Shown one piece after another: positions 1,624-30,007 of a stretch of DNA of 64,000 bases. Source of the stretch: Candidatus Omnitrophota bacterium (GTDB taxonomy: Bacteria > Omnitrophota > Gorgyraeia > Duberdicusellales > 4484-171); contig JBDRDJ010000005.1 of the NCBI GenBank assembly GCA_043820815.1, positions 105,517-169,516 on the forward strand, given 5' to 3'. Below the pieces are notes generated by a model. That model saw only the letters and a program-made list of their open reading frames with translations. It was not told where the DNA came from and did not search any database. Each line of letters begins with the position of its first letter. Positions within the stretch are counted from its first letter, which is position 1. The position numbers and the translations under genes are program-made.

Positions 1624-2895
1624 CTATTTCTTTATACAATCTTTGCCCCCCATATACTTTCTCAAAGCCTGGGGGATAACAACAGAACCGTCTCTTTGCT
1701 GGTAATTTTCCAATATTGCCACCACTAATCGTGCAAGAGCAACACCTGAGCCGTTAAGAGTATGGACAAAAATATTCTTTCCTGATTCTTTATCTCTGTA
1801 TTTTATATTGGCCCGCCGGGCTTGAAAATCCTCAAAATTGGAACAGCTTGAAACCTCAAGCCATTTATCAATTCCCGGTGCATAAATTTCTATATCATAA
1901 CATTTTGCTGCGGCAAAACTTATATCTCCGGTTGCAAGAAGAATAACCCTGTAAGGTATATCGAGAATCTCAAGTACTTTTAAAGCATTCTCGAGAAGAT
2001 TATCAAGCTCATCATAAGAGTTTTGAGGCTTAACGAATTTAACAAGTTCAACTTTGTCAAACTGATGCACCCGCATAAGCCCGCGGGTATCTTTGCCGTA
2101 AGATCCGGCTTCTCTTCTAAAACAAGGAGTGTATGCCGTATAGCAAATAGGCAAATCATCTTCGTTCAGAATTTCGTCTCGGTGGATATTAGTCAACGGA
2201 ACCTCGGCCGTAGGAATCAAAAATAAATCGTCATCTTTTGTTACGTACATATCTTCTTCAAGGTTGGGGAGCTGGCCGGTTGCGCGCATAGAATGCCTGT
2301 TTACCAAAACCGGTGAGAAAATCTCTCGATAACCATGCTCATTAACATGTAAATCAAGCATAAGATTTATAAGAGCGCGTTCCAGACAGGCACCGTCACC
2401 TTTGAAAAGCGCAAAGTTAGAACCGGCTATCTTTGCTGCCCTTTTAAAATCAATAATATCGTGGCTTTGCGCCAGCTCTATATGGTCAACGGGCTTGAAA
2501 TCGAATTTCTTTAACTCCTGAGGTTCCTTTATGATCTCATTGCAAAACGCACTGCCCACAGGAACAGACTGGTGAGGAATATTGGGGATTCTATCACAAT
2601 CCTCTCTAAACTTAACATCTAATTTATCGAATTCTTCCTGCAGTTGGTTAATCTCTGATTTTATCGCCTTGCTTTCATCTATCTTTTGGCCGGGGTCTTT
2701 TTTTTCCTTAAGGATAGCCTTAACATCAACATCTATTCTGTTTTGTGCGGCATTAAGCTCCTCTATTTTAGCAAGGATAGTTTTACGGTCATGGTCAAGC
2801 AGGAGAAATGAATCTAAATCAAAGCGGTAATTGCGGTTTTTAAGCGCGGCTCTGACAACCTCGTGATTCTGACGGATAAATTTTGGGTCTAACAT
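1624..2895 (-). CDS. serS: Seryl-tRNA synthetase
   Basis: 423 aa. N-terminal coiled-coil arm, then class II aaRS core (FSPVLVN, GLMRVHQFDKVE, GSGVALARL motif-3-like). Confidence 0.9.
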   Translation of the reverse strand: MLDPKFIRQNHEVVRAALKNRNYRFDLDSFLLLDHDRKTILAKIEELNAAQNRIDVDVKAILKEKKDPGQKIDESKAIKSEINQLQEEFDKLDVKFREDCDRIPNIPHQSVPVGSAFCNEIIKEPQELKKFDFKPVDHIELAQSHDIIDFKRAAKIAGSNFALFKGDGACLERALINLMLDLHVNEHGYREIFSPVLVNRHSMRATGQLPNLEEDMYVTKDDDLFLIPTAEVPLTNIHRDEILNEDDLPICYTAYTPCFRREAGSYGKDTRGLMRVHQFDKVELVKFVKPQNSYDELDNLLENALKVLEILDIPYRVILLATGDISFAAAKCYDIEIYAPGIDKWLEVSSCSNFEDFQARRANIKYRDKESGKNIFVHTLNGSGVALARLVVAILENYQQRDGSVVIPQALRKYMGGKDCIKK

Positions 2896-6846: not shown

Positions 6847-8298
6847 TTAGCCTTTAACCACGCACAGCGGCCTCATGCGGCAAACTTTCTTTGAAAGGCC
6901 TGCATTGTGCACGACGTCTATGACTTGATCTATGTCTTTATATGCCGAAGGCGCTTCTTCAACTATGGTTTTTTTACCTGTTGCCCTTACTTCAATCCCC
7001 TTTTGTTTTAATTCATTAATCAGTTTATCTAGGCTTATTGTTTTTAAAGCCTCATGGCGCGATTTTATCCTTCCGGCTCCGTGGCACGTAGAACTAAATG
7101 ATTCTTCCTCAGCTTTCTTCGTGCCGGCCAAAAGATAAGAACCTGTTCCCATATCTCCCGGAATAATCACCGGCTGGCCGATATCACGGTATCTGTCGGG
7201 CAATTCAGGATGGCCAATGCCCAATGCGCGGGTTGCCCCTTTTCTGTGGACACATAACGCCTTTTCAATGCCGAAAATCTCATGTTTCTCAATCTTAGCT
7301 ATATTATGCGCAACATCGTAAATTAAACTCATACCCAGAGACTGCCAGCTTTTGGAAAATATTTTTTCGAAACTCTGGCGCGTAAGATGCATTAAAACCT
7401 GCCTGTTTGCCCAGGCATAATTAGCCGCCGCGCGCATTGCACCTATGTAGCGTTTGCCTTCCGGGCTATTTACAGGTGCACAGACAAGCTGCCTGTCAGG
7501 GACATTGATTGAATATTTCGAAAGGCACTTAACCATGCCTTTTACGCTGTCATCGCAAACCTGATAGCCAAAACCCCGTGAACCAGAATGAATCATGACT
7601 GTGATTTGCCCTATATATAAACCTAAGCTTTGTGCTATTTTATCATCGAAAATATCTTCAATAACCTGAACTTCCAAGAAGTGGTTGCCGCTTCCCAGCG
7701 TTCCTGCCTGGGGCTTTCCTCTTTCATACGCCCTATCGGATACGCAATCAGGGTCAGCGCCTTCTATGGCACCATATTCTTCACAACACTCCAAATCTTC
7801 TTTTACTCCATACCCCCGTGAAACAGCCCACTTAGCTCCATCAATAAGAAGTCTTTTTTCCTCGCTAAAAGACATCTTAACATCGCCTTTTGAGCCTACG
7901 CCTGAAGGAACATTCTGGAAAAGGCTGTTTACAATCCTTGGAATCTTATCTTTTATGTCTTTTAAATCTAAATTTGTTTTAAGCAGCCTGATGCCGCAGT
8001 TGATATCATATCCTACTCCTCCGGGAGAAATAACTCCTCCATTTTCAGGGTCAGTTGCCGCAACGCCTCCTATTGAAAACCCGTAACCCCAGTGAATATC
8101 AGGCATGGCAAGGGAATTTTTAACAATCCCCGGTAAATGTGCAACATTAGCTACCTGTTCAAGAGCGCGGTCTTTTTTTATGCCTTCGATAAGTTTATCG
8201 TCAGCATATATAATACCATCGACGCGCATCCCCGCTTTGTAACTTTTAGGAATCCGGAATTTGTAATCACCGATTTTCTCTAAAGGACCATCCCACAT
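6847..8298 (-). CDS. rtcB: RNA-splicing ligase RtcB (3'-phosphate/5'-hydroxyl RNA ligase)
   Basis: 483 aa; conserved RtcB segments (GYDINCG, HSGSRGFG, STCHGAGR). Confidence 0.9.
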   Translation of the reverse strand: MWDGPLEKIGDYKFRIPKSYKAGMRVDGIIYADDKLIEGIKKDRALEQVANVAHLPGIVKNSLAMPDIHWGYGFSIGGVAATDPENGGVISPGGVGYDINCGIRLLKTNLDLKDIKDKIPRIVNSLFQNVPSGVGSKGDVKMSFSEEKRLLIDGAKWAVSRGYGVKEDLECCEEYGAIEGADPDCVSDRAYERGKPQAGTLGSGNHFLEVQVIEDIFDDKIAQSLGLYIGQITVMIHSGSRGFGYQVCDDSVKGMVKCLSKYSINVPDRQLVCAPVNSPEGKRYIGAMRAAANYAWANRQVLMHLTRQSFEKIFSKSWQSLGMSLIYDVAHNIAKIEKHEIFGIEKALCVHRKGATRALGIGHPELPDRYRDIGQPVIIPGDMGTGSYLLAGTKKAEEESFSSTCHGAGRIKSRHEALKTISLDKLINELKQKGIEVRATGKKTIVEEAPSAYKDIDQVIDVVHNAGLSKKVCRMRPLCVVKG

Positions 8299-10131: not shown

Positions 10132-10602
10132 AATATTTTTATAATAAACCAAATTATCAATTAGAACGGGTGTCATTTCAAGCGAAGTCGAACCATGGCC
10201 CCTCCAGTATAGACACCGGGATTTTTTCTTTTTTCTTGGTTCGTATTTCGCAGGGGATAAAACCCAGAACGAAACACGAACCAAGAAAAAAGTGGTTGGA
10301 TATCAAGCCTATTGGCTTATTAGTAGTGCTCGGCTAAACATATTACTATGCGTACACCTGCACCCTATCAGGTGGTAGTCTCCCACCAGCCTTCATCCCG
10401 GGCGAACCCGGAAAGGGATTCTTAGTTTCGGGGTTAGCTTCCCGCTTAGATGCATTCAGCGGTTATCCGAAAGGAACATAGCTACCCAGCCTTTACTCCT
10501 GGCGGAATAACTGGTACACCAGAGGTTCCTCTGTCCCGGTCCTCTCGTACTAGGGACAGCTCCCCTTCAAGAATCCTAACACCCACAGTGGATAGAGACC
10601 GA

Positions 10603-11362
10603 CAGTTTTGTTACTCTTATCCGATTTTCATTGGATAAAGGGCTAATCATTTCTGTTAGCCTCTGCACGTCGCCGTGCAGCTCGGACTGTATCTTCCTTT
10701 GACATCTTTGATGTCAAAGGTCCGGCGTACAGTCTCTGAGGGTTACAAAGAAGCAATTAGTTCCTTAAGAGACAACTTTCTATATTTGCCTCTACTATTC
10801 ATAGAAAAAGCGATCTTAAGGATTTGTATTAATCCATCTTTGGCGAGGTGATTTTTCTCAAACATCATATTCACTACTTTCTTAAATTTAAGAAAATCTT
10901 GATGCTTACAAATCAACGGATAGCTATGGAAAAAAGGTATCACTCTATCTCTTAAGTTTTTTAAATCCCTCACCACAAAAACCCATGTCAAATCATAAGG
11001 ATTTTTACTGTGATTTGGCTTTAAATAACCACAGTCAAGAGTTACCTTAATAAATTCCAATACTTGTGTGCGATTGCCATGCTGTGAAACATGAAATTCA
11101 GGAATAATCTGAATACCTAATCGCACGTTCTTGCTTCGTTGGATTGTGATAGAAAAACTACCTTCACCATCTACAAATCCCGCAATATAATCGCCAGTTT
11201 GCCTCTTTGTCCTTCCCTGCTGATTGTCTGCACCCATATATTGTCACTCCTAACTAATGTTAATCAATATATTTTACACTATAGAGACTAAATAGTCAAA
11301 TAGTAATATGGGATACCCAGATTTTCCAGCATATAGCCAGATTTAAAGACAGCAAATCTCTT
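10603..11362 (-). mobile_element. Group I intron in 23S rRNA domain V (inserted after ...GTGAGACAGT, before TCGGTC)
   Basis: Exon 1 ends GAGACAGU and the intron contains GCUGUC nearby, giving P1 with the U.G wobble. The intron ends in G. R-like (TCAGAGACTG) and S-like (AAGATACAGTCC) core elements lie in the 3' part. The exons rejoin to the conserved ...GAGACAGTTCGGTC. Confidence 0.8.
10743..11237 (-). CDS. Intron-encoded LAGLIDADG homing endonuclease (single-motif, I-CreI-like size, 164 aa)
   Basis: The motif YIAGFVDGEGSF near the N-terminus is the LAGLIDADG signature; the ORF lies wholly inside the group I intron. Confidence 0.85.
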   Translation of the reverse strand: MGADNQQGRTKRQTGDYIAGFVDGEGSFSITIQRSKNVRLGIQIIPEFHVSQHGNRTQVLEFIKVTLDCGYLKPNHSKNPYDLTWVFVVRDLKNLRDRVIPFFHSYPLICKHQDFLKFKKVVNMMFEKNHLAKDGLIQILKIAFSMNSRGKYRKLSLKELIASL

Positions 11363-11502
11363 ACTGTCTCACGACGTTCTGAACCCAGCTCACGTACCCT
11401 TTTAACCGACGAACAGTCGGACCCTTGGGACCTTCTCCAGCCCCAGGATAGGATGAGCCGACATCGAGGTGCCAAACCGCGCCGTCGATGTGAACTCTCG
11501 GG

Positions 11503-11552
<50 letters not shown>

Positions 11553-12015
11553 GCTCCCACGCGCAACCACCGGATCATTAGGCCCTGCTTTCGCATCTGC
11601 TTGGCTTGTCAGCCTCGCAGTCAAGCACCCTTGTGCCCTTACACTCACCGTCCGATTTCCAAACGGACTGAGGGTACCTTTGGGCCCCTCCGTTACTCTT
11701 TAGGAGGGAACTGCCCCAGTTAAACTGCCCAACTGGCACGGTTCTCTGCACAACACAGAGTTAGAATCTTAACATAATAAGGGTGGTATTTCACCGGTGG
11801 CTCCTCCCGACCTAGCGGCCGAAACTCAAAGCCTCCCACCTATGCTACACATATTAGGCCAAAATTCAATACCAGCCTACAGTAAAGGTTCCGGGGTCTT
11901 TTCGTCCTACTGCGGGTAGACGGCATCTGAACCGCCACTACAATTTCGCCGAGAGCCTCGCTGAGACAGTGTTCCCATGGTTTTACCTTTCGTGCGGGTC
12001 GGAAATTACCCGACT

Positions 12016-12056
<41 letters not shown>

Positions 12057-13457
12057 ATTCACCAGGGCTTCGGTTCAAAGCTTCTTCTGACGAATCAGAA
12101 TAACCTTTTCCCTTAACCTTCCGGCATTGGGCAGGTCTCAGTCCCTATACATCCTCTTGCGAGTTAGCAGGGACATGTGTTTTTGCTAAACAGTCCCAGG
12201 AACCATTTCTCTGCGCCCATGACATAAATGTCAAGGGACCCCTTCTCGCGAACTTACGGGGTTATTTTGCCGAGTTCCTTAGCGAGGTTTATCTCGAGCG
12301 CCTTACCATACTATGGCAGCCTACCTGTGTCGGATTCCGGTACGGTCACCTATAGACAACTTAAGAAACTGTTTCTTGGCACTCAATCCTGATGGGTTCG
12401 CCCGCGCCGTAGCTTGGACTCCTGCCGGTCCCTTACGGAACCGAAAACGGACACATCCAACAGTCCGACCATCGCATCTTGTGCGTCATCTCTTAAGTTA
12501 ACGCCTATAGGTGGGGGGTGAACTATTAACACCCTTACCCATCGCCTACTCCCGTTAAACCGGGATTTGACTTAGGGACCGCCTAACCTCCGTTTGACGA
12601 ACATTGACGGAGAAACCTTAGGCTTTCGGCGCACCGATTTTTCATCGGTGTTTTCGCTACTCATTCCAGGATACTCACTTCTATGCGCTCCAGCTTGATT
12701 TACATCAAACCTTCAGTGCGCGTAGAACGCTCCCCTACCCCTTCCGATTATTCATCGGAAAGCCGCGGTTTCGGTAACAGGCTTGAGCCCCGATCATTTT
12801 CGGCGCAAAATCACTCGATCGGTGAGCTATTACGCACTCTTTAAATGATGGCTGCCTCTAAGCCAACATCCCGACTGTCTTAGCAACTTCACATCCTTTA
12901 ACACTTAGCCTGTGTTTTGGGACCTTAACCGGCGGTCTGGGCTGTTTCCCTTTCGACTATGGAGCTTAGCCCCCACAGTCTCACTCCTCGGGTAAGAACA
13001 GTAAAGATTCGGAGTTAGGTTGGGTTTGGTATGGACTCTGTCCACCCTAGCCCATCCTGTGCTCTACCCTCTACGTCCAATCCCGAAGGCTGACCCTAAA
13101 GTCATTTCGGGGAGAACCAGCTATCACCAATCTTGATTAGCCTTTCACTCCAACCCACAGCTCATCCGAGCCTTTTTCAACAGACACCAGTTCGGGCCTC
13201 TATCCCGCTTTCGCGGGACTTCACCCTGGCCATGGGTAGATCGACTGGCTTCGGGTCTATTTCCTACCACTAAAACGCCCTGTTAGGACTCGGTTTCCCT
13301 ACGCCTGCCCCTTATTAGTTACAATAAGGGTTAAACTCGTGATAAAAAATAACTCCCTGGACCATTATGCAAAAGGTACGCCGTCGCCACGCCATTGCTG
13401 ACGGGCTTCGACCGCTTTGTAAACTTATGGTTTCAGATTCTATTTCACTCCCCTCAC

Positions 13458-13494
<37 letters not shown>

Positions 13495-14070
13495 ACTATC
13501 GGTCTGATGCGAGTATTTAGCCTTGCCCCGTGGTCAGGGCGAATTCCCACAAAGTTTCTCGTGCTCCGTGGTACTTGGGAATACATGCCAGAGAGTTTTT
13601 TCCATTTTGCTTACAGGACTATCACCCTCTATGGTGCCGCTTTCCAGCAGCTTCTGCTATAGAAAAAATTTTTGACTCTCCGAGAGCACTGCCGCGCTCT
13701 CCACTTGTACCCCGTAACTCTCAAAAAGCAACACCGGCAGGCTTATAAACTTTTTGAGTTTGGGCTGTTCCCTTTTCGCTCGCCGCTACTGGGGGAATAC
13801 TGTACGGTTTCTCTTCCTCCGGCTACTGAGATGTTTCACTTCACCGGGTTAGTCCCCTTGATATTGTCATACCAAGGGTTTCCAGGCATTACCCTGGAAG
13901 GGTTACCCCATTCGGGAATCTGCGGATCAAAGAAAGCTTGCCTCTCCCCGCAGCTTATCGCAGCTTGCCACGCCCTTCATCACCTGCATCAACCAAGCCA
14001 TCCTCCATAAGCTCTTAGTAGCTTGATACCCAACCAAATTTTCAAAGACCAAATTTATTTTTTTCCTCAA

Positions 14071-24599: not shown

Positions 24600-26555
24600 T
24601 TAGAATTCGCATTTAAAACCGGTGTAGAGAGATAGTTTTTCTTCCTGATAACCCTTGATTCTTTCGTAATCTTTATTTAATAAATTATTCACCTTTATAA
24701 ACAACGTTGATTTATCATTAAGCCGGTAGTTGCAATTTAAATTAACTAGAGTGTAAGGCTTCATAGGAACAAAACTATCCACTGCCCCAACCCATATTCT
24801 ATCAGTTCTCGAGCCTGCGTAAATAAAATCTAAAATTGTTTTTAATTTCTTAAATTCCCATGTAATATTAAAATATGCCTTATGCCTGGGCACGCGGATT
24901 AAGGCACGGCTGAAAATATCCACTAAATTATCGTCAACAAAATCCTGCTCACCGTTTAAATGCGTATATCCGGTTTCAATTTTTAAGGCTTCATCGGGCT
25001 TATAATCAAAAGAAATCTCAACTCCCCTCATTTTCTGCTTAGCGGCATTTTTGTATTCTCCCTGATAAAGCGAAGGATTTGTAAATACAAAATCAATTAA
25101 TCCTTTCAAATTGGAGTGAAAGTAGGCAAAATTAAGCGATATTTTATCGCCAAAGGCTTGCTTGAAGCCGGCCTCCCAGGTTTTTGACTCTTCCGGTTCA
25201 AGATTGCGGTTTCCGTTTGATGAAAACAGCTGATACAAAGACGGTGCTTTAAACCCCTCTCCGTAAGAAAAGAATAGATTAGAATTATCAATAGGGCTGT
25301 AAGAAACTCCTGATTTCACAACAGAATGATATTTAAAAAGAGGGCTGTATTCACGCCGGTATGAAAAATCTACATTTAGATTTTCCCATGGGTTTATAAT
25401 CTGCTCAACAAACCACCCCTTGGCATAGCTGCTTACCTTAGGCGAATCAGAAGCATACCCAAAAGCCCAGGCGTAATCATAGGTATACCTGTAGCTGTCC
25501 ATATGCTCCTGGGTATAATCAAAGCCTACGAGAGTCCTGTATTCATTTAAAGGCCGCAGCTCGAAATGGTTTGACAGCTGATAAGTGCTGCCTTTATACC
25601 AACCTCTTGTATATTCATCAGCGCCGCCCTCATTGTCATCAAAAACTTTCCTGTAAATCCTGGTATAGCCGGCCTGGATTTTATAATCAAGGCAATCGAG
25701 TAAATTTTTCTTAATGTAAGTAGTGCCAAAAAACTCATTACCTATATTTAGATTATCAGGGTCATCTTCGGGAAATCCGTCTAAGTTATCGTCATCATCT
25801 ATCTCAGTTCTGGAATGTGAGCCTCTCATATAAAGGGCCATCTCAAGATTTTGCGGTTCTTGATAATTTAACCCCAGTGTAAGATTTGTATTCTGGTAGG
25901 GGTCACGTTCAGGGTTGTTATTCTTTTCTTTTGCTTTTGAAATACCTTTTGAATCAACCCGGGCAATATTAAAAAGATAGGATAAATTATTTGATTCTCC
26001 GCCTAATTCTAAGCTTTCTTGAAATGTATCGTGAGAACCGGATAAAGATGAAATATTGATATGCGGCCGGCCAGCAGGCCTTTTAACAAGAAAATTAACC
26101 GCACCTCCTATAGGAGAAGATCCGTAAAGGGATGAAAGGGGGAATTTTACAATCTCTATTTTATTGAGGCCGGTTGCGAGAAAGTCCGAAGGCACGTAGT
26201 AGGCTGATGTATTTGAAGGGTCATAGATTTTTAATCCTTCAAATAAATAGGCAGTATGCCTTGTTCTTGCTCCTCTTATATAGATTCCCTCAGAGGAACT
26301 TCCGAGCCTACCTCCGCCTATAACATCAACGCCGGTTATGCCTGAAAGAGTTTCGCCGGCAGTAAACAGGTTTTTGCCTTCAATATTCTCTTGGCCTAAA
26401 ACATTAACATGAATATCGTGATATTTTGACTCTACCTCAGTCTTTGAAGGCGTGATTACTAAATTGCCCAGGTCAACGGGATCCTGGCTGTAACAGACCA
26501 GGGATACAAGACACAAGACCGCAGGCAATAATAATTTTTTTAATAATTTTGGCAT
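24600..26555 (-). CDS. btuB: TonB-dependent outer-membrane receptor (cobalamin receptor BtuB-like)
   Basis: Signal peptide, TonB-box-like DLGNLVITPSKTE, plug and barrel, C-terminal ...FKCEF ending in Phe; first gene after a cobalamin riboswitch. Confidence 0.8.
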   Translation of the reverse strand: MPKLLKKLLLPAVLCLVSLVCYSQDPVDLGNLVITPSKTEVESKYHDIHVNVLGQENIEGKNLFTAGETLSGITGVDVIGGGRLGSSSEGIYIRGARTRHTAYLFEGLKIYDPSNTSAYYVPSDFLATGLNKIEIVKFPLSSLYGSSPIGGAVNFLVKRPAGRPHINISSLSGSHDTFQESLELGGESNNLSYLFNIARVDSKGISKAKEKNNNPERDPYQNTNLTLGLNYQEPQNLEMALYMRGSHSRTEIDDDDNLDGFPEDDPDNLNIGNEFFGTTYIKKNLLDCLDYKIQAGYTRIYRKVFDDNEGGADEYTRGWYKGSTYQLSNHFELRPLNEYRTLVGFDYTQEHMDSYRYTYDYAWAFGYASDSPKVSSYAKGWFVEQIINPWENLNVDFSYRREYSPLFKYHSVVKSGVSYSPIDNSNLFFSYGEGFKAPSLYQLFSSNGNRNLEPEESKTWEAGFKQAFGDKISLNFAYFHSNLKGLIDFVFTNPSLYQGEYKNAAKQKMRGVEISFDYKPDEALKIETGYTHLNGEQDFVDDNLVDIFSRALIRVPRHKAYFNITWEFKKLKTILDFIYAGSRTDRIWVGAVDSFVPMKPYTLVNLNCNYRLNDKSTLFIKVNNLLNKDYERIKGYQEEKLSLYTGFKCEF

Positions 26556-26694: not shown

Positions 26695-26895
26695 TTTAGG
26701 TTCTATTTCCGCGCAAAACCTAAAGTCACATACTTATTCAGCAGGTCTTCTGACTTACCCGCTCTTTTAACGCCTTCCCATCCTAATTTATTCGGAAAGT
26801 GGCTTAAGTGTTAAAAGAGTTTTCTCATCTTAAGAGAAACAGGATCACAGCTCCGGGAGAGCTGCCGAATTTCACGGCATTCCCTTTTAATCCAT
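26695..26895 (-). promoter_or_regulatory. Cobalamin (AdoCbl) riboswitch
   Basis: Minus strand carries GGGAATGCCGTGAAATTCGGCAGC...CCCGGAGCTGTGATCC...GCCACT...GGGAAGGCG...AGTCAGAAGACCTGCTG. This matches the cobalamin aptamer core (GGGAA..GGTGAAA.TCC..GC.G.CCC.GC.ACTGT) and B12 box (AGYCAGGAGACCTGCC). Confidence 0.8.
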
Positions 26896-27088
26896 ATGGC
26901 ACTGAATCAGTAAATTAATCAAATTTTTAAAGAGCTGATTTATTTTACATGAAGGAGATGTTGTGTCAAGCTTTTTCGGAATACGGATAGCGACCGAAGG
27001 GAGTCCTGAGCGAGACCGAAGGTCGAGTCGAAGGGCGGATTGCGTGATGCGTTATTGTTCGGTGTTGGTTATTTGCAGGCACGCATTA

Positions 27089-27516: not shown

Positions 27517-27927
27517 TTAACCATCTTTTATCGCCTGCCTTGTATATTTATCAAGATAAGGCTTCCAGTCCAGATATTTAAGTATAGTTATCTGCTCATA
27601 ATCAAGTCTCAGTTTTTCATCGGCGCAGTAAATAAGTTTGCCGTCACGCAGAATTCTTTGCGCTAAGAAAGGGCTTGCATTGTTTAAAAGCACAAGGTCT
27701 ATCTCGTCAGTCTTAAGGGCATCGTTTAACCGGCCAAGCAGTTCTAATTTCTTTCCGGAATATTCCTTCCTATCCAATCCTCCTATATACAAAGCAATGT
27801 CAATATCACTCAAAGGACCGGTTGAGCCTTTTGCCTGTGAGCCAAAAAGATAAGCAAACACAACACCGCTATCTCTACATACAGCGTTTATCTTCTCCCC
27901 GATCTCTTCTCTGTTATGCTTTGCCAT
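27517..27927 (-). CDS. mntA: Minimal nucleotidyltransferase MntA (antitoxin, pol-beta-type NTase)
   Basis: GS-x10-SDID motif (FGSQAKGSTGPLSDIDIAL) of the pol-beta NTase fold; 136 aa; 5-nt gap to hepT. Confidence 0.8.
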   Translation of the reverse strand: MAKHNREEIGEKINAVCRDSGVVFAYLFGSQAKGSTGPLSDIDIALYIGGLDRKEYSGKKLELLGRLNDALKTDEIDLVLLNNASPFLAQRILRDGKLIYCADEKLRLDYEQITILKYLDWKPYLDKYTRQAIKDG

Positions 27928-28029: not shown

Positions 28030-28810
28030 ACCACAGAGGCCGCAGGGTGTAGGTCGAGTAGACCCGTATTTCAGAGCCCCTCACAGAACCGTACGTGCGG
28101 ATTTCCCGCATACGGCTCTTGAGTAAATTTCCATCAGTATACGATTATGCGTATCACATTATCAACCCCTACCGCTTTATTCCTGTCAAGCGTATAGAAG
28201 CTCGCCTTTAAGGATTCCTTGTTAACATGTTGCATTATGTTGACAAACTTTCGCTTAGAATCCCTTGCGGCATACTGACTTAGTGTGGTTAATTTCGTTC
28301 CCACTGTTTTCCTTTGAACTTTGAGTTCATACAATGTTTCCTTAACCACATTCAACTTACTCCTAACCCCTTCGAGCAGCTTTAAGCTTTAGCGGCGTTA
28401 CCCGCTATTGACTCTAATATGGATTAGTCCGACTACCATTCATGTCGTACTATTGCCTTACTTCTTCAGCTTAAGCACTAGCTTAATTGGAAACATGATG
28501 GTCATCCCAAGTTCCAATGCAAACATTCGATAACCCACGGTGGCTTACTACCCCGGCAGGACAACATATCCTTGCCATAGCGTTTATGCTGTTACTGGTT
28601 TCCAGCACTTGAAAACTTTAACCCACTGCTACATGTCTATTTCGGGGCTAAAAATCCTTCACTTGTGTTACCGTTGATTATCTCCTTCCCCTTGGCTTTG
28701 CACGATTTGTTACCGCCTCGTACACAAGGTTCAGTACCTCCCTGATGGCTAATCTTTAAGAGAGTTAGCTTTTACATACTAACCTGTCTGCATCAGCTTT
28801 CTTGGCGCAC
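28030..28810 (-). mobile_element. ORF-degenerate group II intron (about 0.78 kb), probably class C: inserted in intergenic DNA immediately after a stem-loop
   Basis: 5' end GTGCGCC (revcomp of 28804-28810). Domain V GAGCCGTATGCGGGAAATCCGCACGTACGGTTC (revcomp of 28086-28118) matches the DV consensus. A 73-aa RT N-terminal remnant sits between. The exon flank just 5' of the insertion forms the hairpin TCAAGTCTCAACTTGA. The 3' boundary is approximate; D6 was not resolved. Confidence 0.75.
28134..28355 (-). pseudogene. Remnant of the group II intron-encoded reverse transcriptase/maturase (N-terminal 73 aa only)
   Basis: The translation ...LYELKVQRKTV...FVNIMQHVNKESLKASFYTLDRNKAVGVDNV resembles the RT0/N-terminal region of intron-encoded proteins (..L...I...NL..A...V..NKGAAGVDG..). 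The ORF stops 16 nt before DV. Confidence 0.6.
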
Positions 28811-29115: not shown

Positions 29116-29883
29116 TTAAAAACAAGGTTCCTTTAGACCGGAACAACTCAGCGATATCGTACGTATACCACCTACCGCACAACTATTTTGACGTTGCCAA
29201 CCACTAGCATTGGTATAATACCAAACCCAATTATCAGTACAGGAAACCCATTGTTTAGTCTTTATAGCATCAACCTTGGTATAACCTTCAAGTTCGCATA
29301 AATGCTTAGCAGTTGTATTGTCGGCCCTTGTCTGTTCCGAATCATCAGCTACTGGTAGACCTGCACCCTCGCTGCCTGCAAGTTGATTAATTCTACTTTC
29401 ACCAAGAACAACATTCTCCGGTGGGCACCAACACGGAATCCATACTGCTTTTCCAGCGCCATCTGACTTAAGACAATCACCTTTCTTGCCCTCTGCAACC
29501 GGCAACTCATATCCAACCCCAGGGGCACCAATATTTACCTGCCCTTCTAAGAGAGCTGTACCGACAACATCAAGATTCTCTCTAGGTTCACGAGTCCCTA
29601 TGCCCAAACTGCCAGATAGTGCCAAACTTCCCGGCAAAGGATCACCGTTTATGTCAACAGCCATGTCTGCATTAGTAACTTTACCGTCTCCATCAACATC
29701 TCCAAGAACAACGGTGTTGGTAATAATGAGATCTTTATACACCCCGTAAGGTGCCGGGTAATAGGTTGTAAGTGAAATTTTCTCGCCATCAGGCTCCTCT
29801 GCCTTAGGCTTAGAAAAACCGGTAAACACCACTGAAACAGCGAGAAACAAAAATGCAATTAGAATAAAGGCTCTTTTTGACAT
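29116..29883 (-). CDS. Secreted paralog family protein P4 (ISLTTYYPAPYG motif, dockerin-like DVDGDGKVTNAD loop; divergent Cys-rich C-terminus)
   Basis: Probable start MSKRAF (RBS AAGGAGG), not the upstream ATG at 29913. Signal peptide; EKISLTTYYPAPYGVYKDLII; GDVDGDGKVTNADMAVDINGD; SLGIGTREPRENLDV; 10 Cys in the C-terminal 110 aa. Confidence 0.65.
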   Translation of the reverse strand: MSKRAFILIAFLFLAVSVVFTGFSKPKAEEPDGEKISLTTYYPAPYGVYKDLIITNTVVLGDVDGDGKVTNADMAVDINGDPLPGSLALSGSLGIGTREPRENLDVVGTALLEGQVNIGAPGVGYELPVAEGKKGDCLKSDGAGKAVWIPCWCPPENVVLGESRINQLAGSEGAGLPVADDSEQTRADNTTAKHLCELEGYTKVDAIKTKQWVSCTDNWVWYYTNASGWQRQNSCAVGGIRTISLSCSGLKEPCF

Positions 29884-30007
29884 ATTCCCCTCCTTTTTAA
29901 CCACGAAATCCAATATTTGAATACTACATATTTATGAAAACTATACCATATAAATATACCATATTTTCGGCGGAAAAACCACCTTTTTCGGAGAAAAAGG
30001 AAAAAGG

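Follow-up and report, generated by a model that had tools for sequence, protein, structure and literature searches.

We analysed a 64,000-nt stretch of DNA from a Candidatus Omnitrophota bacterium (contig JBDRDJ010000005.1 of assembly GCA_043820815.1, hereafter the window), in which domain V of the 23S rRNA gene is interrupted by 760 nt that carry an open reading frame (ORF) for a LAGLIDADG protein. The window holds a single rRNA operon, on the minus strand and in the order 16S-tRNA-tRNA-23S-5S, with two tRNAs between the 16S gene and the 23S gene that starts at 14028. The bacterial large subunit (LSU) model of Rfam aligns to the 23S gene through ...GAACGUCGUG, jumps by about 762 nt and restarts at UCGGUCUCUAUCC. 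When the 3' part was scanned alone the model ran, with 525 bits across the insertion, from ...GGGUUCAGAACGUCGUG over a gap of about 762 nt to UCGGUCUCUAUCCACUGUGGG and on to the 23S end at 10312. BLAST against E. coli 23S stops at 2604 and restarts at 2605 after a 760-nt gap, and reveals no further large insertion in the 23S gene of the window.

The insert occupies 11362 to 10603, with A as its first and G as its last base, and is flanked by U2604 (11363) as the last base of the 5' exon and U2605 (10602) as the first base of the 3' exon. The numbering was anchored on the annotated E. coli 23S gene, where the landmarks A2451, U2585, A2602 and C2611 were verified. A first-pass annotation, made from the letters of the DNA, had proposed a group I intron with an I-CreI-like homing endonuclease at this place; its 760-nt interruption is exact to the base, while its estimate of the position (E. 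coli about 2590-2600) has to be replaced by 2604|2605. The GC content is 36 % in the insert compared to 51 % in the exons. The insertion falls within the 3' strand of the stem 2588-2594/2599-2606 (helix 93), two bases from the catalytic A2602, and a working ribosome therefore needs the insert to be removed. Joined together, the exon ends form the pseudo-palindrome GAGACAGU|UCGGUCUC with the insertion point at its centre and 6 of 12 positions symmetric.

The 5' end of the insert provides the pairings expected of a group I intron (Table 1). The exon end GACAGU pairs with GCUGUC at intron positions 10-15 to form P1, with a U2604·G10 wobble at the 5' splice site, as had been read in the first pass. 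The splice-site pair is UG in 56 of 58 homologues and UA in the other two. In addition the P1 loop is complementary to the 3' exon, which suggests a P10 of 7 bp in the window. Across the family the mean complementary run is 4.5 compared to 3.6 with shuffled loops, and the sole polymorphic exon base (+7, C or U) fits its loop partner in 17/17 cases (10 C-G and 7 U-A).

The remainder of the structure is a complete group I core. With only 6 nt between P1 and P3 there is no P2; likewise P7.1 and P7.2 are lacking, since 3 nt separate P7 from the 3' strand of P3 and none separate the latter from P8. The P5 arm is extended and its distal part (11240-11305) is variable. Both the R- and S-like elements noticed earlier are present, the core elements UCAGAGACUG and AAGAUACAGUCC being nearly invariant among 59 homologues, and the conserved GUAACAnnnnUG tail closes the intron model. 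An early model with P4 as AUAUG/CAUAU, P5 as GGG/CCC and the ORF in J6/7 was abandoned; it is broken by homologues such as locus L011 and also contradicted by the true Q element AAUCAGCAGG found inside the ORF. The placement of P3-P6 in the 3' end of the ORF by the Rfam group I model (RF00028) was dropped as well, the upstream P3/P4/P5 strands being the ones that covary.

Table 1. Coordinates of the rRNA genes, the intron and its elements in the window (MFE, minimum free energy)
Feature	Positions	Strand	Basis
16S rRNA	16171-14577	minus	window rRNA operon
23S rRNA gene, both exons and intron	10312..14028	minus	Rfam LSU_rRNA_bacteria, 2380 bits
5S rRNA	10130-10014	minus	window rRNA operon
Group I intron (predicted), 760 nt, site L2604	10603..11362	minus	LSU model, E. 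coli numbering, BLAST
P1 5' exon strand GACAGU, splice-site U2604 at 11363	11363..11368	minus	helix paired in 98 % of cells
P1-loop AGAGAUU, complementary to 3' exon GGUCUCU (proposed P10)	11355..11361	minus	7-bp run
Internal guide sequence GCUGUC (P1 3' strand), intron positions 10-15	11348..11353	minus	alignment and MFE fold
P3 5' strand UCUGGC	11336..11341	minus	>99 % paired, 4 pairs changed on both sides
P4 5' strand UGCUG, classic P element AUGCUGGAAA	11327..11331	minus	invariant, 100 % paired; MFE
P5 (UCUG) and P5a (CCCAUAU) 5' strands	11306..11321	minus	both-side changes in 2/4 and 7/7 pairs; MFE
Shine-Dalgarno-like GGAG, 9 nt upstream of AUG, distal P5 arm	11247..11250	minus	sequence reading
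LAGLIDADG homing endonuclease ORF (predicted), 164 aa	10743..11237	minus	Pfam, alignment, AlphaFold2, Foldseek
P5a (AUAUGGG), P5 (CAGA) and P4 (CAGCA; Q element AAUCAGCAGG) 3' strands	11218..11239	minus	alignment, covariation
P6 (GGG) and P6a (ACAAAGAGGC) 5' strands	11201..11217	minus	P6a 10/10 pairs changed on both sides
P6a (GCUUCUUUGU) and P6 (CCC) 3' strands, closing ORF-holding loop L6	10740..10754	minus	structure model
R element: J6/7 UCAGA, P7 5' GACUG (10730-10734), P3 3' GCCGGA (10721-10726)	10721..10739	minus	Rfam, covariation
P8 hairpin	10696..10720	minus	covariation, MFE
S element: J8/7 AAGAUA and P7 3' strand CAGUC	10685..10695	minus	Rfam, covariation
P9 (GCGA tetraloop), P9.1 and P9.2 hairpins	10614..10680	minus	covariation; MFE z = -7.2
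Conserved 3' tail GUAACAAAACUG, terminal omega-G at 10603	10603..10613	minus	alignments
3' exon start (UCGGUCUCUAUC), U2605 at 10602	10591..10602	minus	E. coli numbering

All 82 pairs of the model are canonical in the window. We aligned 59 full-length introns and counted 78 of these 82 pairs for covariation. Standard pairs fill 89.3 % of the cells compared to 74.3 % with shuffled partners, a value that none of 500 shuffles reached, and sliding the partners by 1-3 columns reduces the paired cells to 35-39 %. Changes on both sides were found in 55 of the 78 pairs (773 cells), and compensatory changes occur in every helix except P1, which is constrained by the exon, and P4, which is invariant and thus uninformative. 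Per helix, both-side changes affect 4 pairs in P3, 2 in P5, 7 in P5a, 1 in P6, 10 in P6a, 2 in P7 and 11 in P8, with further ones in P9, P9.1 and P9.2. The variable P7 pairs change from UA to CG in 8 sequences and from GC to AU in 25, and the variable P3 pairs are compensated in 4/4 cases. Unconstrained MFE folds of the two halves independently recover P1/P4/P5/P5a (z = -3.5) and P7/P8/P9/P9.1/P9.2 (z = -7.2). Taken together, the alignments indicate that purifying selection, with compensatory change, acts on the RNA fold and that the insert is, as judged from its sequence, a group I intron in domain V of the 23S gene, as first proposed.

A complete covarying group I core, in place of a simple extended hairpin, also bears on whether the insert could instead be an intervening sequence (IVS) that RNase III removes without ligation, leaving a fragmented 23S, or a segment excised by a protein endonuclease with rejoining of the ends by RtcB. 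IVSs do exist in bacterial 23S genes (PMC11270868) and an RtcB gene is located at 6847-8298 of the window. The sites reported as consistent with RNase III-processed IVSs are 23IS2 and 23IS4, however, and not 23IS13, which corresponds to 2604 (PMC11270868), and cutting between 2604 and 2605 would split helix 93. Downstream of the 5S gene come a tRNA and then, at a distance of 1.7 kb, the RtcB gene (minus strand, Pfam E = 2e-176). Of the 15 related loci whose downstream DNA is long enough, solely the closest genome (L003, 82 % amino acid identity) shows the gene in synteny, and since this is 1/15 loci the gene is probably unrelated to the intron. We regard excision by either of these routes as exceedingly improbable.

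The only substantial ORF of the intron is intact and encodes 164 amino acids with the motif YIAGFVDGEGSF, in agreement with the single LAGLIDADG motif reported in the first pass. Pfam LAGLIDADG_1 (PF00961) matches it with 77.2 bits against a cutoff of 23.1 (E = 2e-21) as one domain spanning residues 18-122, and NCBIfam gives no match for this ORF. The D23/G24/E25/G26 motif is invariant in a 30-member family alignment; the 33 invariant columns of that alignment are all found in the window protein by construction, as it is the reference row. In an alignment with I-CreI, D23 falls opposite D20 and Q52 opposite Q47.

The AlphaFold2 model of the protein (pLDDT 89.7, pTM 0.83) has an αββαββα core with the predicted elements H3-25, E26-34, E42-53, H54-67, E71-74, E84-89 and H92-105. 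Foldseek matches it with a probability of 1.00 to I-TnaI, I-Vdi141I and I-CeuI at query-normalised TM scores of 0.76-0.84. The order of fold matches is I-TnaI (35 % identity), the archaeal I-Vdi141I and then halves of I-SmaMI, I-LtrI, I-OnuI and I-PanMI, together with I-CeuI. When sequences of the PDB were searched, halves of the I-OnuI family scored best, I-TnaI was the best single-domain match (E = 4e-26) and derivatives of I-CreI reached only E = 1e-8. According to these comparisons and the model, the 164-aa product is a LAGLIDADG_1 protein with one domain, intact and with a confidently predicted fold.

The ORF is interwoven with the predicted ribozyme. Its AUG lies inside the 3' strand of P5a, and the ORF continues through the 3' strands of P5 and P4 and through P6 and P6a to fill L6. 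The Shine-Dalgarno-like region upstream of it includes AGGAGUGA, which is conserved in the intron alignment. Codons 1-7 (MGADNQQ) double as the 3' strands of P5a, P5 and P4, and this double use of the early codons explains the invariance of Q6, Q7 and R9 among the proteins of the family. The two strands of P6/P6a are provided by codons 7-13 and the final codons; both strands are coding and nevertheless covary. A UAA stop comes just before the 3' strand of P6 in the window and its closest relatives; in most homologues the ORF reads on through that strand, J6/7, P7 and the 3' strand of P3, with a recurrent C-terminus LESSETVRQ (9 codons). The pairing of the Shine-Dalgarno-like sequence and the AUG in the MFE fold suggests that translation and ribozyme folding may compete.

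To place the element among its relatives we gathered homologous insertions from 16 loci of species-representative genomes and from 80 metagenome loci, drawn from 575 relatives. In 68 loci both exon borders were identifiable, and in 68/68 the intron sits at the same site and ends in G, so that the terminal G noted in the window at first reading is a family feature. These 68 introns are 580-912 nt long and share the insertion site even down to about 39 % protein identity; in most of the loci without both borders the 5' exon motif is found at the expected distance upstream of the ORF. Some relatives carry additional material within the helices, with a hairpin-rich extra of about 57 nt inside P3 in L024 and about 40-50 additional nt inside P9.1 in L008, L033, L035 and L041. 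The first-pass remark that bacterial rRNA introns are uncommon is true for cultured bacteria, but this lineage is abundant in metagenomes, as shown by the 575 relatives.

The named homologues and loci are mainly Omnitrophota and include a complete 1.27-Mb chromosome (L003). Other metagenome-assembled genomes (MAGs) with L2604 homologues are labelled Elusimicrobia, Nitrospirota, Fimbriimonadales, Planctomycetia, Pseudomonadota, Actinomycetota and Levybacteria, the last of these belonging to the Candidate Phyla Radiation (CPR). One locus with the same L2604 intron comes from a MAG labelled 'Candidatus Nanoarchaeia archaeon' (L014, DATBWR010000005.1), yet its 23S is of bacterial type and scores 2066 bits on the bacterial LSU model; this contig is likely mis-binned or mislabelled. 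As rRNA operons are often mis-binned, individual MAG labels are weak evidence. Judged by these labels, which need checking, the L2604 element may occur also in Elusimicrobia, Nitrospirota, Armatimonadota and others. The identity of the window's 23S gene to those of related loci is 73-88 %, which is uninformative for host placement. The host was placed by the seryl-tRNA synthetase of the window instead, which is 100 % identical to a protein of an NCBI 'Candidatus Omnitrophota bacterium' MAG (on a 238-kb contig); among its further matches, practically all of those with an organism name are likewise Omnitrophota. Occurrence in many bacterial lineages at one conserved site fits horizontal homing.

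Large 23S insertions at other positions were also seen in relatives, namely in L012 (around E. coli 1924 and 1951), L013 (1919-1932), L006 (1923/1924) and L003 (upstream of 2501). Two of them, L012 1809-2183 and L013 1923-2142, reach the Rfam group I gathering score. Because relatives carry such insertions beyond L2604, Omnitrophota-type 23S genes can hold several introns, and the same has been reported for CPR bacteria.

The distribution of the family and the interweaving of gene and ribozyme bear on a second alternative, in which the intron splices but the protein acts mainly as a maturase, or is a decaying endonuclease, and the element is inherited essentially vertically. I-TnaI is the nearest characterised relative by fold, and maturase-like activity has been reported for the LAGLIDADG protein of a Thermotoga neapolitana 23S intron (PMC3984707). 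The overlap of the ORF with P4-P6a would couple the evolution of protein and RNA. Degenerate copies exist as well: L016 (96-675) carries a 580-nt L2604 intron with a degenerate 46-aa ORF. Such a copy is also what the life cycle of homing endonucleases predicts. In the window, however, the catalytic D23 and Q52 and all other family-invariant residues are intact, and the presence of the element at one site in many unrelated bacterial lineages needs horizontal homing. Maturase and endonuclease activities can moreover coexist. We consider a mainly maturase or decaying protein with vertical inheritance unlikely.

The explanation that we favour is that the window carries a mobile group I intron at L2604 in an Omnitrophota host with an intact homing-endonuclease gene. 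This is very probable, with splicing, dimerisation and cleavage as its predicted components. The pre-23S RNA would fold into a group I core comprising P1 with the U·G pair at U2604, the helices P3-P8, of which P3 and P7 form a pseudoknot, the extended P5 arm and P9-P9.2. Exogenous guanosine would attack after U2604, the terminal G would dock, and exon ligation would restore helix 93 beside A2602. It is the insertion in helix 93, the intact 23S and the selected, covarying fold that lead us to infer self-splicing by this two-step guanosine-initiated pathway. The 164-aa single-domain protein would be translated from the AUG within P5a, and a dimer of it would recognise the intron-less sequence around GAGACAGT|TCGGTCTC, a pseudo-palindrome centred on the insertion point. 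The element would then spread through a staggered cut of both strands that is repaired from an intron-containing copy. The single domain, the intact active-site motif and the 6/12 symmetry of this target argue for a homodimeric endonuclease that drives homing.

Several points weigh against this explanation. Splicing is a prediction from the DNA sequence. The Rfam scan suggested in the first pass does match the group I model RF00028 (E = 1.4e-8), but only in a permissive scan and with 40.9 bits, under the gathering score of 50; the L2604 introns of the 16 loci all stay below that threshold too. The alignment to RF00028 is credible only for the region of R, P8, S and P9. The true 5' strands of P3-P6 lie about 500 nt upstream, across the ORF-filled L6 and beyond the span of the model. 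P10 complementarity exceeds that of shuffled loops by little (4.5 against 3.6). The MFE fold pairs both the Shine-Dalgarno-like sequence and the AUG, which bears on when the ORF can be translated. The symmetry of the target covers only 6 of 12 positions and is partly imposed by the rRNA helix itself. The operon of the window may not be the only one of the genome. Finally, an unspliced 23S group I intron has reportedly been found in Simkania.

A splicing prediction from DNA, a sub-threshold Rfam score and the reported Simkania case would also suit an unspliced group I relic kept in the mature 23S, or a pseudogene. We find this highly unlikely: the core helices are all canonical in the window (82/82 pairs), the covariation indicates continuing selection on the fold and the 23S exons, at 2380 bits, are otherwise undisrupted. 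Moreover, as inferred from ribosome structure, 760 nt in the A2602 stem would be incompatible with a working peptidyl-transferase centre.

A mobile L2604 intron of this kind has practical consequences. Standard annotation misses the element: its endonuclease ORF is absent from a collection of 5.8 billion proteins, where the best match is 76-78 % identical, and the Rfam group I model scores it under threshold. The neighbouring seryl-tRNA synthetase (1624-2895, minus strand) is present in that collection at 100 % identity, which is consistent with gene callers not predicting ORFs in rRNA genes. Such ORFs seem to be systematically uncalled, so that the endonuclease family is under-counted. In Omnitrophota and other lineages, an insert of 760 nt at 2604 also disrupts primers and probes based on 23S as well as rRNA callers. 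The family offers a large set of small homodimer-type LAGLIDADG enzymes whose predicted target is a near-universal bacterial peptidyl-transferase sequence, which makes them candidate meganuclease scaffolds.

We also considered a broader proposal, in which L2604 represents a distinct and widespread non-CPR lineage of introns and endonucleases that combines an unusual interlock of protein and ribozyme with an overlap of its target with that of L2593. We doubt that all of these hold jointly. If they did, ribozyme folding and translation would be mutually exclusive and form a built-in switch, the protein might double as a maturase like the Thermotoga neapolitana 23S-intron protein, and the L2593 and L2604 lineages would compete for, and immunise, the same peptidyl-transferase stretch. 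ORFs reaching into the ribozyme core are already known from cyanobacterial 23S introns (PMC1995217), and such an ORF is therefore typical of these elements and does not by itself make this one new.

Other RNA elements were seen elsewhere in the window. A long and near-perfect hairpin (…CCACUUUUUUCUUGGUUCG…CGAACCAAGAAAAAAG…) between the 23S and 5S genes (10206-10307, minus strand) is presumably a spacer processing stem and gave rise to spurious sub-threshold matches to Phe_leader and several miRNA families. A group II intron lies at 28053-28773 on the minus strand, between ORFs at 27517-27927 and 29116-29913. It matches domains 1-4 (RF02005, 110.7 bits, 28541-28773) and domains 5-6 (RF00029, 61.9 bits, 28053-28120), and the approximately 420 nt between these matches hold no ORF of at least 80 aa, so that it is without an intron-encoded protein. 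A cobalamin riboswitch (26723-26921, minus strand, 94 bits) is located directly upstream of a gene for a TonB-dependent receptor with Plug and beta-barrel domains (24600-26555, minus strand), a layout that is usual for the BtuB type.

Single-motif LAGLIDADG genes have been described in group I introns of bacterial 23S rRNA at L1917, L1931, L1951 and L2593, the hosts being Thermotoga, Coxiella and cyanobacteria (PMC1995217). In 2024 a survey of CPR bacteria (Tsurumaki et al., J Bacteriol) reported LAGLIDADG_1 ORFs in insertions at 1917, 1931, 1952, 2593, 2604 and 2657 (PMC11270868). The site 2604 is named 23IS13 there, and group I introns at this site are stated to be unreported in other bacteria (PMC11270868). 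In the library that we searched, no paper mentions 'L2604' or deals with an endonuclease for this target, and the target sequence itself turned up only in papers on PCR primers.

The I-CreI family, to which the first-pass annotation had tied the element, differs from it in site, RNA and protein. The site of I-CreI and I-MsoI is n.2593 and their target spans the stem 2588-2594/2599-2606 (PMC3315327). The window element thus does lie in the stretch targeted by this family, within the same stem-loop (2588-2606), but at a different site 11 nt downstream of 2593, at positions +8/+9 of the I-CreI target, so that the two targets overlap. The sequence ACGU|CGUG at the 2593 site is unbroken in the window and in 14 of 16 related genome loci, with one point substitution and one truncated locus making up the rest. 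Both systems have a single-motif enzyme of the homodimer type and the same size, with the ORF in a peripheral loop. In published descriptions of L2593 introns P5 and P2 are short and P7.1/P7.2 are present (PMC1995217), whereas the window intron has an extended P5 and neither P2 nor P7.1/P7.2. I-CreI is 29 % identical to the window protein over 87 residues and absent from the top 50 fold matches. Site, RNA architecture and protein relatedness together place the element outside the I-CreI/L2593 (IA3-type) group.

The top PDB sequence scores belong to I-OnuI, I-LtrI and I-SmaMI (E = 1e-36 to 1e-39), each half of which aligns to residues 17-148 at 30-38 % identity. These fungal mitochondrial enzymes are two-domain monomers of about 300 aa that act on asymmetric sites in mitochondrial genes, whereas the window enzyme has a single domain and would have to dimerise.

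A closer resemblance is found in the Thermotoga L1931 intron and its enzyme I-TnaI (PDB 5gkk), likewise a bacterial 23S group I intron with a single-domain LAGLIDADG protein of about 160-170 aa and the best structural match of the window protein (Foldseek E = 1.6e-14, 35 % identity). A complex P5 and the lack of P2 are on record for L1917 and L1931 introns (PMC1995217), and the RNA of the window intron, without P2 and with an extended P5, resembles this description. The two differ in site (1931 compared to 2604), and thus in DNA target and guide sequence, and their proteins share only 35 % identity.

The closest known counterparts are the CPR insertions at 23IS13 (PMC11270868), which have the same position, a single-domain LAGLIDADG_1 ORF and group-I-like flanks. 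The proteins of two Levybacteria loci (L013 and L015) are 45-47 % identical to that of the window and the same RNA structure fits them. The survey covered CPR genomes only and gave neither secondary structure nor enzymology for 2604; the only enzyme assayed, I-ShaI, belongs to a different 23S site, where it cleaves its site and dimerises (PMC11270868). The host of the window is an omnitrophotan and lies outside the CPR, so that a site reported so far only from CPR bacteria is now extended to Omnitrophota. With the structure given here, the L2604 intron class has what seems to be its first secondary structure tested by covariation. The L2604 intron leaves the knowledge of how such elements work unchanged: it is ordinary in mechanism and a new non-CPR member of a recently catalogued intron class.

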